Position numbers: made by a program. From the NCBI RefSeq assembly GCF_055900595.2, contig NZ_CM148325.1: a DNA stretch of 64,000 nucleotides. The stretch is one strand, 5' to 3'. Positions 1 to 3,000 of the stretch are shown here, one piece after another; within the stretch, counting starts at the first letter, position 1; each line of letters opens with the position of its first letter.

Positions 1-3000
1 TGTTGCTGATTGTGTGGGGAGAGATTGATTGATGCTGCTGGCGTAACGACTCAGCTTCGTGTACCGGGCTTTGTAGGAGTTTGCCATTGCTCTCTGATAG
101 CTCGCGCGCCAGCGTCATGCAGCCTGCCCAGCCTTCACGTTTTGAGGGCATTGGCGATTCCCACATATCCATCCAGCCGATAACAATACGCCGACCATCC
201 TTCGCTAAAAAGCTTTGTGGTGCATAAAAGTCATGCCCATTATCAAGTTCAGTAAAATGCCCGGATTGTGCAAAAAGTCGTCCTGGCGACCATATTCCGG
301 GTATTACACCACTTTGAAAGCGATTTCGATAATTGTATCCCTCGGCATTCATTCCCTGCGGGGAAAACATCAGATAATGTTGATCGCCAAGGCTGAAAAA
401 GTCCGGACATTCCCACATATAGCTTTCACCCGCATCAGCGTGGGCCAGTACGCGATCGAAAGTCCATTCACGCAATGAACTGCCGCGATAAAGCAGGATC
501 TGTCCCGTGTTGCCTGGGTCTTTCGCCCCGACTACCATCCACCAGGTGTCGGCTTCACGCCACACTTTAGGATCGCGGAAGTGCATGATTCCTTCTGGTG
601 GAGTGAGGATCACACCTTGTTTCTCGAAATGAATACCATCCCGGCTGGTAGCCAGACATTGTACTTCACGAATTGCATCGTCATTACCTGCACCATCGAG
701 CCAGACGTGGCCGGTGTAGATAAGTGAGAGGACACCATTGTCATCAACAGCACTACCTGAAAAACACCCGTCTTTGTCATTCTCGTCTCCTGGCGCTAGC
801 GCAATAGGCTCGTGCTGCCAGTGGATCATATCGTCGCTGGTGGCATGTCCCCAGTGCATTGGCCCCCAGTGTTCGCTCATCGGGTGATGCTGATAAAACG
901 CGTGATAACGATTGTTAAACCAGATCAGGCCGTTTGGATCGTTCATCCACCCGGCTGGAGGCGCGAGGTGAAAATGGGGATAAAAAGTATTCCCCCGGCG
1001 CTCGTGAAGTTTTGCTAGTGCGTTTTGCGCCGCATGCAATCGAGATTGCGTCATTTTAATCATCCTGGTTAAGCAAATTTGGTGAATTGTTAACGTTAAC
1101 TTTTATAAAAATAAAGCCCCTTATCTTTATAAATGTGATTAATATCACAAATGTTAACGTTAACTATGACGTTTTGTGATCGAATGTGCATGTTTTAGTA
1201 AATCCATGACGATTTTGCGAAAAAGAGGTTTATCACTATGCGTAAGTCAGATGAATTTGAGGGAAAAAAATGTCAGCCAAAGTATGGGTTTTAGGGGATG
1301 CGGTTGTCGATCTCTTGCCTGAATCAGACGGGCGCCTACTGCCTTGTCCTGGCGGCGCGCCAGCTAACGTTGCGGTGGGAATCGCCAGATTAGGCGGAAT
1401 AAGTGGGTTTATAGGCCGGGTGGGTGATGATCCTTTTGGCGCGTTAATGCAAAGAACGCTGCTAACTGAGGGAGTCGATATCACGTATCTGAAGCAGGAT
1501 GAATGGCACCGAACATCCACGGTGCTTGTCGATCTGAACGATCAGGGGGAACGTTCATTTACGTTTATGGTCCGCCCTGGTGCCGATCTTTTTTTAGAGA
1601 CGACTGACTTGCCCTTCTGGCGACATGGCGAATGGTTACATCTCTGTTCTATTGCGTTGTCTGCTGAACCTTCGCGTACCAGCGCATTTACTGCGATGAC
1701 GGCGATCCGGCATGCCGGAGGTTTTGTCAGCTTCGATCCCAATATTCGTGAAGATCTGTGGCAAGACGAGCATTTGCTCCGCTTGTGTTTGCGACAGGCG
1801 CTACAACTGGCGGATGTCGTCAAGCTCTCGGAAGAAGAATGGCGACTTATCAGCGGAAAAACACAGAACGATCGGGATATATGTGCTCTGGCAAAAGAGT
1901 ATGAGATCGCCATGCTGTTGGTGACTAAAGGTGCAGAAGGGGTGGTGGTCTGTTATCGAGGACAAGTTCACCATTTTGCTGGAATGTCTGTGAATTGTGT
2001 CGATAGCACGGGGGCGGGAGATGCGTTCGTTGCCGGGTTACTCACAGGTCTTTCCTCTACGGGATTAGAGACCGATGAGAGAGAAATGCGACGAATTATC
2101 GATCTCGCTCAACGTTGCGGAGCGCTTGCAGTAACGGCGAAAGGGGCAATGACAGCGCTGCCATGTCGACAAGATCTGGAATAGTGAGAAATAAACGGCG
2201 AGGCCGTTCTTGTCTCTGAATAGGACGTGAATATTTTAACGACAGGCAGGTAATTATGGCACTGAATATACCATTCAGAAATGTGTACTATCGTTTTGCA
2301 TCCAGTTACTCATTTCTCTTTTTTATTTCCTGGTCGCTGTGGTGGTCGTTATACGCTATTTGGCTGAAAGGACATCTAGGGTTGACTGGGACGGAATTAG
2401 GTACACTTTATTCGGTCAACCAGTTTACCAGTATTCTATTTATGATGGTCTACGGCATCGTCCAGGATAAACTCGGTCTGAAGAAACCGCTTATCTGGTG
2501 TATGAGTTTCATCCTGGTCTTGACCGGACCGTTTATGATTTACGTTTATGAACCGTTACTGCAAAGCAATTTTTCTGTAGGTCTAATTTTGGGGGCGCTC
2601 TTTTTTGGCTTGGGGTATCTGGCGGGCTGCGGTCTGCTTGATAGCTTCACCGAAAAAATGGCACGAAATTTTCATTTCGAATATGGAACAGCGCGCGCCT
2701 GGGGATCTTTTGGCTATGCGATTGGCGCGTTCTTTGCTGGCATATTTTTCAGTATCAGTCCCCATATCAACTTCTGGTTGGTTTCGCTATTTGGCGCTGT
2801 ATTTATGATGATCAACATGCGTTTTAAATATCAGGATCAGCAGTGCGTAGCGGCAGATGCGGGAGGGGTAAAAAAAGAGGATTTTATTGCAGTTTTCAAG
2901 GATCGAAACTTCTGGATTTTCGTCATATTTATTGTGGGGACGTGGTCTTTCTATAACATTTTTGATCAACAGCTCTTTCCTGTTTTTTATGCAGGTTTAT

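Follow-up and report, generated by a model that had tools for sequence, protein, structure and literature searches.

The window analysed here, a 64-kb stretch of DNA, begins within a csc locus. The gene for the GH32 sucrose hydrolase (invertase) CscA lies on the minus strand with its start codon at 1054; its first 351 codons fill positions 1–1054 (TIGR01322 scrB_fam, 407.7 bits) and the gene continues past the left end of the window, being annotated as cscA in a genome that is 100% identical over window positions 1–3953. On the plus strand, cscK (1270–2184) encodes a fructokinase (NF006957, 501 bits against a cutoff of 450) and forms an operon with cscB (2256–3503), a LacY-type sucrose:H+ symporter (TIGR00882 oligosaccharide MFS transporter, 590 bits), for which NZ_CM177078.1 bears the cscB annotation. 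An initial sequence-only reading had placed the LacI-type repressor CscR outside the window and this is borne out, as tblastn finds no CscR homologue in the window and, in the genome identical over 1–3953, there is a 331-residue LacI-family gene whose end lies 388 bp left of position 1 and which is convergent with cscA. Its product combines a LacI helix-turn-helix with a Peripla_BP_1 domain, and in another E. coli genome with the same gene arrangement it carries the annotation of CscR, the repressor of the sucrose operon.

The divergent genes are separated by exactly 215 bp (1055–1269), and it is here that the sequence-only reading had noted a 12-bp palindrome occurring twice, 64 bp apart, an observation that we confirm in both sequence and location. 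The element GTTAACGTTAAC is its own reverse complement and has two exact copies in the 64-kb window, at 1089–1100 (O1, the cscA-proximal candidate CscR operator core) and 1153–1164 (O2, the cscK-proximal candidate core), which lie 64 bp apart start to start with 52 bp between them; both assignments draw on the exact palindrome, conservation and the literature. Around both copies a longer repeat of 17 nt, AAtTGTTAACGTTAACT, is identical at 16 of 17 positions. Base composition predicts 0.0047 exact copies in the window and 2e-5 in the intergenic region. When up to two mismatches to the core are allowed, eight matches are observed, a number reached in none of 100 shuffles; the six besides O1 and O2 each carry two mismatches, the window holding no further exact or one-mismatch copy.

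Interleaved with the palindromes are two CRP sites, which the sequence-only reading had not mentioned and which are needed to explain how the palindromes act. CRP site 1 (1134–1149, 22-bp site 1131–1152) has the core TGTGATTAATATCACA, matching at 10/10 core positions and the sole perfect CRP core in the window, its centre being separated from O1 by 47 bp and from O2 by 17 bp. CRP site 2 (1175–1190, 22-bp site 1172–1193), TGTGATCGAATGTGCA, matches at 7/10 core positions, with a perfect left half and a weak right half; its centre lies 41 bp from that of CRP site 1 and 24 bp from O2, and O2 sits between the two CRP sites. The promoters are less distinct. Scanning with the sigma-70 consensus gave no promoter between the two genes, and the sole promoter-like match from a promoter and terminator scan of 1000–1320 falls inside cscK, on the wrong strand and at no more than the level of shuffles. 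A weak, hand-picked candidate for the cscA −10 hexamer, TATTTT (1108–1113, minus strand), was read from the sequence and is only partly conserved between genera; were it the −10 element, we would infer a cscA start near 1101, with O1 covering roughly +1 to +12 and CRP site 1 close to −41.5.

Seven csc loci from five genera were compared (two from E. coli, two from Citrobacter amalonaticus, and those of Pluralibacter, Tatumella and Klebsiella sp.); CscR is full-length and 67–96% identical in six, and Tatumella keeps only a 36-residue remnant of cscR. Absence of the palindromes from other csc loci would speak against the operator reading, and the pair is present in 7/7 of the enterobacterial CscR-linked loci fetched; the rearranged csc locus of Citrobacter freundii described in PMC11251922 was not recovered by our locus scan. 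Invariant columns make up 23/24 of the palindrome positions versus 24/171 (14%) of the other intergenic positions (Fisher p = 7e-16). All 12 columns of O1 are invariant together with its 5′ ATT flank (ATTGTTAACGTTAAC, 1086–1100), as are 11/12 columns of O2, the sole change being GTTATCGTTAAC in Klebsiella sp. The palindromes are spaced 64 bp apart in every locus but one, where the distance is 62 bp. CRP site 1 scores 8–9/10 in the other six loci, lying 17 bp from O2 in 7/7 and 47 bp from O1 in all except Klebsiella sp. (45 bp), and the block TTTGTGATC of CRP site 2 is invariant in 7/7, including the locus that has no divergent cscK. The four sites thus form a module of O1, 47 bp, CRP site 1, 17 bp, O2, 24 bp and CRP half-site 2, whose offsets are identical in six loci, the seventh differing in the O1–CRP1 offset only. 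In Klebsiella sp. BIGb0407 the whole module, O2 and the CRP2 half-site included, precedes a lone cscB-cscA operon and has no divergently transcribed gene on its other side, where only the terminator hairpin of an upstream same-strand gene is found.

Within E. coli, the region is carried by about 2,660 genomes. The allele of the window is the rarer one, with at least 99% identity in 37/2,662 genomes and about 95–96% identity to the rest, and it differs from the common allele by 10 intergenic substitutions, none of which falls in a palindrome. CRP site 1 reads TGTGA-N6-TCACA in the window allele versus TGCGA-N6-TCACA in the common one. Among single-base variants of the 38-nt windows around O1 or O2, 7/7 of those sampled are changed in the flank and 0 in the palindrome, in a sample taken outside the 18 records with 90–95% identity, at least one of which is a deletion variant. 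E. coli O78 strain 3 has lost the 64 bp between the copies, and the repeats are therefore able to recombine.

The palindrome pair is already known, having been regarded as putative CscR operators since 2002, and this is an ordinary regulatory region, correctly read. According to PMC11251922, Jahreis et al. 2002 found a 12-bp inverted repeat present twice in the cscA–cscK interval and proposed the copies as putative CscR operators, an up-mutation maps to one of the two, and the repeats are conserved across five species; as conveyed by PMC11251922 and PMC3938415, the published regions and the window contain the same repeats. A putative CscR operator overlaps the cscA transcription start, and two operators bracket one promoter (PMC11251922). 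According to Steen et al. 2014 (PMC3938415), who isolated anew a point mutation in the putative operator of cscKB, this change had earlier been shown to permit growth on low sucrose. Operator and cscR mutations both derepress csc, loss of cscR alone being sufficient (PMC3938415). The two papers, as secondary sources, conflict on whether it was cscA or cscKB expression that rose in the operator mutant. Expression is cAMP dependent, with a Crp-cAMP site adjoining the cscA −35 (PMC11251922, PMC3938415), and the promoter has been described as bidirectional with two cAMP-CRP sites (PMC3938415). Repression by CscR, cAMP dependence and the operator up-mutation are taken here from this published work. 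Both papers call the repeats putative; we found no EMSA, footprint or ChIP of CscR on O1 or O2 in the accessible literature, and a full-text search for the 12-mer together with CscR returned no paper.

The palindromes also conform to what is known of the LacI family at large, in which 1173 of 1303 factors have sites with a central CG and more than 75% of sites lie 30–140 bp upstream (PMC4052901). [quoted passage not shown] The cognate LacI-family regulator gene is found in the same locus, outside the window, in the 100%-identical genome. LacI-type regulators from the Firmicutes, of Lachnospiraceae and Dorea, are only 24–29% identical to CscR, with the helix GVSMMTVSRVMN common to both, and regulators with the helix SMMTVSRVM have paired GTTA(A/G)CG(C/T)TAAC sites upstream of their own genes. 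Sites with up to two mismatches number 22 in 4,147 bp upstream versus 4 in 146,715 bp elsewhere, an enrichment of about 195-fold, in which the mutually orthologous Lachnospiraceae loci count as one or two independent lineages rather than twelve. The operator sequence thus tracks the recognition helix of the regulator across few independent lineages.

Taken together, the two palindromes are very probably operators of the LacI-family sucrose repressor CscR, encoded immediately to the left of the window. The sequence-only reading had called them plausible CscR operators, and we use the word operator because published genetics, conservation and the family rule all support it. Our own analysis contributes the sites and their non-randomness, their conservation and fixed geometry, the fit to the LacI family and the adjacent cscR gene. 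We propose the following mechanism of how CscR might act, for which the promoter elements overlapped by each site are predicted. In the absence of inducer, one CscR dimer would bind each GTTAA|CG|TTAAC site. At O1 (1089–1100), over the region of the cscA transcript start, CscR would block RNA polymerase, while at O2 (1153–1164) it would occupy the 19-bp gap between the 22-bp cAMP-CRP sites 1131–1152 and 1172–1193, where it would probably prevent or neutralise CRP activation of both divergent promoters. Expression would therefore need sucrose-dependent release of CscR as well as cAMP-CRP, that is, no glucose. Simple occlusion of the cscK promoter is unlikely, since any plausible cscK start is some 80 bp downstream of O2, and we infer that an effect of O2 on cscKB would need either interference with CRP or cooperation with O1. 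We also offer, tentatively, a more specific model, regarding it as possible rather than probable: csc may be controlled by a single four-site module (O1, CRP1, O2, CRP2) and not by one operator per divergent promoter, with CscR at O2, between tandem CRP dimers 41 bp apart, causing anti-activation or CRP exclusion at both promoters and O1 adding direct occlusion of cscA. This model is supported by the invariant geometry in seven loci and the retention of the complete module in Klebsiella sp. BIGb0407.

Alternatively, the two sites may act as a single cooperative unit instead of serving one promoter each. A pair of interacting CscR dimers 64 bp apart, and so about six helical turns (6.1) on the same face of the DNA, might loop out the cscA core promoter together with CRP site 1, in the manner of GalR and LacI at their paired operators. 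The spacing is close to an integral number of turns and is maintained across the loci despite diverged DNA between the sites, and both operators are kept in Klebsiella sp. BIGb0407, where the divergent gene is missing; PMC11251922 also has two operators flanking one promoter. However, the CRP site and promoter that lie between the operators, being themselves fixed in position, account for a constant spacing just as well, and a 52-bp loop would be very tight. The tetramerisation helix of LacI occupies about residues 340–357 of 360, whereas CscR has 331 residues with its Peripla_BP_1 match running to residue 329 and is thus without a C-terminal extension, so that any bridging would have to be of another kind. 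We regard looping as possible rather than probable.

Two further readings would take the palindromes away from CscR in part or altogether. In one, a different LacI-family member with sites of the TGTTA-N4-TAACA class (GntR or IdnR, for example) might bind beside CscR or in its place, which would couple the sucrose genes with the gluconate or central carbon status of the cell. Read together with its flanks as ATGTTAACGTTAACTA, O2 agrees with the GntR consensus ATGTTACCCGTAACAT at 10/12 arm positions and has the N4 spacing in common with it, and GntR models are among the best NCBIfam matches of CscR, though sub-threshold. Yet the centre is ACGT versus CCGA and CCCG in GntR sites, we know of no data that connect GntR to csc, every locus found with the palindromes also has a cscR orthologue, and loss of cscR alone derepresses csc in the published genetics; we consider such a role very unlikely. 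A Cra/FruR site was also rejected by eye, sharing only the central AACGTT, with arms of TGAA versus GTTA. Lastly, the repeats might have no protein-binding role, being a product of chance, a duplication relic, a cruciform or a long O1–O2 hairpin. The 96-nt stretch 1079–1174 does fold strongly as a single strand (−17.5 kcal/mol, z = −6.3), a trivial result because two copies of one palindrome are mutually complementary, and the deletion between the copies in E. coli O78 strain 3 attests to recombination between them. But taken singly, neither palindrome folds better than shuffled sequence (z +0.5 and −0.5), the inner 52 nt have no conserved structure (z −1.2 to +0.7 in six other loci) and no expected transcript covers both copies, and on these grounds the hairpin or cruciform was rejected. 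Chance is opposed by the expectation given above for the intergenic region, and a relic by the retention of 23/24 bases across genera amid saturated divergence. Conservation effectively refutes the absence of a binding role, which we hold to be extremely improbable.

The value of these sites as a discovery is little, as the repeats have been in the literature since 2002 and their cross-species conservation was shown again in 2024. Their practical use is modest. The csc genes are a cassette for growth of industrial E. coli on sucrose and are known to be limited by their slow induction when sucrose is low, and promoter redesign could use the strict constraint on both operators and the CRP geometry, the position of O2 wedged between two CRP sites, and the quality of the CRP site, which varies among natural alleles and is perfect in the window. 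The locus also illustrates cleanly how, across phyla, operator specificity follows the recognition helix of LacI-family regulators.

A repressor site between tandem CRP sites recalls the anti-activation exerted by CytR, and the core of O2 is placed likewise, with a geometry conserved in seven loci, the resemblance being one of layout only. CytR is also the best NCBIfam match of CscR, though sub-threshold. At deoP2, a CRP-dependent promoter subject to CytR anti-activation, the CRP centres are about 53 bp apart, compared with 41 bp at csc, and CytR sites are weak and dependent on contacts with CRP, whereas the csc site is a strong, perfect palindrome; to our knowledge no CscR–CRP interaction has been described. 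In sequence, there is a resemblance to the sites of GntR and IdnR of E. coli and CceR of Rhodobacter sphaeroides, of the class TGTTA-N4-TAACA or (T/C)GTT-N6-AAC(A/T), which have the same half-site GTTA...TAAC and the same spacing. The half-site TGTTA is also found in E. coli GntR operators (ATGTTACCGATAACAG), and CceR ChIP-seq sites include GTTAGCGCTAAC, two bases off the csc palindrome, although the regulators, effectors and regulons differ from those of csc, as do the central four bases of GntR sites.

In architecture, a close parallel is offered by ScrR and the pUR400 scrY promoter (work of Jahreis and Lengeler 1993 related in PMC11251922). There, too, a LacI-family sucrose repressor has two inverted repeats, O1 and O2, bracketing a promoter, with the downstream repeat over the transcription start and a CRP site upstream, as at csc. 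According to the same account, the ScrR repeats are of 14 bp with a different sequence at a unidirectional promoter, whereas those of csc are of 12 bp at a divergent one, and the ScrR operators are backed by mutational and inducer-release evidence (PMC11251922), those of csc being putative. CscR and ScrR form separate orthologous groups (PMC4052901). The csc regions of the E. coli strains W and EC3132 (Jahreis et al. 2002; Sabri et al. 2013; PMC3938415; PMC11251922) represent the same locus as the window, with the same 12-bp repeats, CRP sites and cscR-cscA / cscK-cscB layout. From the common E. coli csc region, the window is set apart by its rarer allele and perfect CRP site 1.

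The gap between the divergent sucrose genes cscA (hydrolase) and cscK (fructokinase), which 1055-1269 matches exactly, carries two copies of a 12-bp palindrome, GTTAACGTTAAC, identical to its own reverse complement. The copies lie at 1089-1100 (O1, cscA-proximal) and 1153-1164 (O2, cscK-proximal), 64 bp apart from start to start with 52 bp between them, so that every detail of the arrangement described in the sequence-only reading was borne out. A scan of the 64 kb window gave no further copy with fewer than two mismatches; the expectation from base composition is 0.0047 exact copies for the whole window and 2e-5 for the 215-bp gap, which is AT-rich. 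The repeat lengthens to 17 nt as AA(T/A)TGTTAACGTTAACT. On the minus strand, cscA (scrB_fam, 407.7 bits) has its start codon at 1054 and its first 351 codons within the window, while on the plus strand cscK (1270-2184; fructokinase equivalog, 501 bits) is followed by the symporter gene cscB (2256-3503).

The sequence-only reading had also placed the LacI-family sucrose repressor CscR outside the window. Indeed, tblastn returned no CscR-like gene within it, and in E. coli Z0117EC0005, which is 100% identical to window 1-3953, a 331-aa LacI-family gene convergent with cscA ends 388 bp to the left of window position 1. Another E. coli genome with an identical gene arrangement annotates it as 'sucrose operon repressor CscR'. 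The 331-aa protein comprises a LacI HTH (residues 3-48) and a Peripla_BP_1 domain (residues 61-329). PDB 6ndi_A (an unnamed 'Transcriptional regulator', 334 aa, with the helix VSLMTVSR) aligns to it over its full length (E = 7e-111) and could be a template for modelling CscR on its operator.

Beyond cscB, a genomic island of ~42 kb occupies the argW site (3954-46001) as far as tRNA-Arg(CCT) (46003-46077, minus strand), flanked by 16-bp direct repeats of the tRNA 3' end (3938-3953 and 46002-46017). It encodes a tyrosine integrase (44637-45854, minus strand) and a small ORF (4027-4227) that resembles AlpA by eye and has no NCBIfam match. Z0117EC0005 is without the island, its backbone on either side being 100% identical to the window, and annotations in the corresponding regions of other E. 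coli include an autotransporter as well as transposases of IS66, IS3 and IS30.

Using CscR as a query in a scan of one genome per species, we gathered seven csc loci. Their sources are E. coli, Escherichia sp., Citrobacter amalonaticus (two), a Pluralibacter MAG, Klebsiella sp. BIGb0407 and Tatumella ptyseos. The pair is present in all seven: six carry two exact copies 64 bp apart, and Klebsiella sp. BIGb0407 has one exact copy with an altered second copy, GTTATCGTTAAC, at 62 bp. In the seven-sequence alignment, 23/24 palindrome columns are invariant as against 24/171 other intergenic columns (Fisher p = 7e-16), with mean pairwise identities of 0.99 and 0.57, respectively. Together with the published descriptions and the LacI-family operator rule, this supports the original reading of the palindromes as plausible CscR operators.

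The palindromes alternate with two CRP-type sites, CRP1 (1134-1149, TGTGATTAATATCACA), whose core is perfect and the sole perfect one in the window, and CRP2 (1175-1190, TGTGATCGAATGTGCA), with a perfect left half and a weak right half. The further invariant columns comprise ATT before O1, most of the CRP1 core and TTTGTGATC of CRP2. Centre-to-centre distances are 47 bp (O1-CRP1), 17 bp (CRP1-O2) and 24 bp (O2-CRP2), such that the 19-bp gap between the 22-bp CRP sites is filled by the O2 core and its immediate flanks. All seven loci share this four-site geometry, save that O1-CRP1 is 2 bp shorter in Klebsiella sp. The csc locus there is rearranged (L008 7001-10911): cscR is followed by cscA and cscB, which form a single operon on the opposite strand, and cscK is missing. 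The complete module lies upstream of this cscB-cscA operon, and its other side is bordered only by a terminator hairpin, which belongs to an unrelated same-strand gene. Even here, where the surrounding sequence has diverged heavily, the locus keeps O2 and the CRP2 half-site. This arrangement favours viewing the four sites as a single module. In Tatumella ptyseos ATCC 33301 (L022 7001-7108, 8672-8747), cscA, cscK, cscB and both exact operators are intact, and cscR is reduced to a remnant that matches residues 5-40. This locus is probably constitutive, though its operators have not decayed.

The region is present in about 2,660 of 5,426 complete E. coli genomes, and 38-nt windows are perfect around O1 in 2,260 and around O2 in 1,993 of those carrying it; all seven one-mismatch variants sampled have a change in the flank. 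Between the window and the common E. coli allele there are 10 intergenic differences, all of them outside the palindromes, which alone is not significant because about one hit would be expected. CRP1 of the common allele reads TGCGATGAATATCACA as against the perfect core of the window allele, which is rare (at least 99% identity in 37 of 2,662 genomes carrying the region) and might raise the cAMP-dependent expression of the csc pathway, known for being slow. In E. coli O78 strain 3 (NZ_CP084096.1; L031 position 155), a natural deletion spans precisely the 64 bp that separate the palindromes, leaving one copy and removing CRP1 and the presumed cscA core promoter; it looks like recombination or slippage between 12-17 bp direct repeats. 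A cross-genus conserved block, TTTATCA.T.TGCGTAAG.CAGATGAA, contains a short upstream ORF of 18 codons (1238-1294) that overlaps the cscK start in another reading frame. The ORF's start is ATG (at 1238) in the window and GTG in other genera, and the block could reflect a cscK promoter, a leader or a peptide.

The most likely mechanism is as follows. In the absence of inducer, CscR dimers would occupy both palindromes. If the cscA -10 is TATTTT (1113-1108, minus strand), transcription would start at ~1101, CRP1 would occupy a class II position, centred at about -41.5, and O1 would span +1 to +12, allowing classical occlusion. This hexamer is only partially conserved among the aligned loci, and a consensus scan of the intergenic region found no promoter. 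No plausible cscK start lies close enough downstream of O2 for polymerase to be occluded; a cscK -10 at TATCAC (1231-1236), for example, would place CRP2 near -61. Since O2 lies between the CRP sites, its action would be explained most economically if it hindered CRP at both promoters, at the level of binding or of activation. The mutant class of Jahreis 2002 was reportedly a 'cscKo operator mutation', rendering csc inducible at low sucrose.

Looping between O1 and O2 is possible, given that 64 bp is about six helical turns, but CscR is without the LacI-like C-terminal tetramerisation segment. A purely structural role was rejected: neither copy folds better than its shuffles do, the other six loci show no conserved fold in the inner 52 nt, and the strong 96-nt fold (z = -6.3) is trivial because it contains two copies of one palindrome. 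The TGTTA...TAACA arms are also common to GntR operators (ATGTTACCGATAACAG; consensus ATGTTACCCGTAACAT) and CceR ChIP-seq sites (e.g., GTTAGCGCTAAC). Cross-binding by GntR or IdnR is conceivable but unlikely, with arm similarity as its sole support. In published genetics, csc is derepressed on cscR loss.

The CscR scan also brought LacI-family genes of Lachnospiraceae, Dorea and Aliiglaciecola, with 24-29% identity to CscR and the recognition-helix peptide SMMTVSRVM in common; L009-L021 (Lachnospiraceae, Dorea and other Firmicutes MAGs) have the CscR-type helix GVSMMTVSRVMN at an overall identity of only about 28%. The Firmicutes genes adjoin an ABC sugar transporter and a GH31 glycosidase, with no csc neighbours, and have pairs like GTTAGCGCTAAC and ATTAACG(C/T)TAAC within 250 bp upstream. 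Operator-like sites (at most two mismatches) of these Firmicutes regulators number 22 in 4,147 bp upstream of the regulator genes versus 4 in 146,715 bp elsewhere, a count representing one or two independent lineages as the Firmicutes loci are orthologous. The operator therefore tracks the DNA-reading helix and not the sugar pathway. Of the paired GTTAGCGCTAAC/ATTAACGCTAAC sites (e.g., L013 6770-6781, 6967-6978), one covers the divergent transporter promoter and the other follows closely on the TTTACA-17-TATAAT promoter of the regulator's own gene, which suggests autoregulation.

The palindrome pair itself is already known. Jahreis et al. 2002, as cited in PMC11251922, described a 12-bp inverted repeat, present twice in the cscA-cscK gap, as the putative operator of CscR, one copy being the site of an up-mutation. 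The repeats flank the cscA -35/-10, the downstream copy covering the transcription start; a Crp site adjoins the -35, and all elements are conserved in five species (PMC11251922). PMC3938415 describes operator sites for cscA and for cscKB, together with two cAMP-CRP sites. LacI-family operators typically lie 30-140 bp upstream and are palindromes of even length centred on CG (PMC4052901). Beyond these descriptions, the present analysis extends the conservation of the pair to Tatumella, to Pluralibacter and to a Klebsiella sp., shows that the four-site geometry is invariant and that operator and recognition helix correlate in Firmicutes, and documents an allele whose CRP site is perfect along with natural variants of the region.
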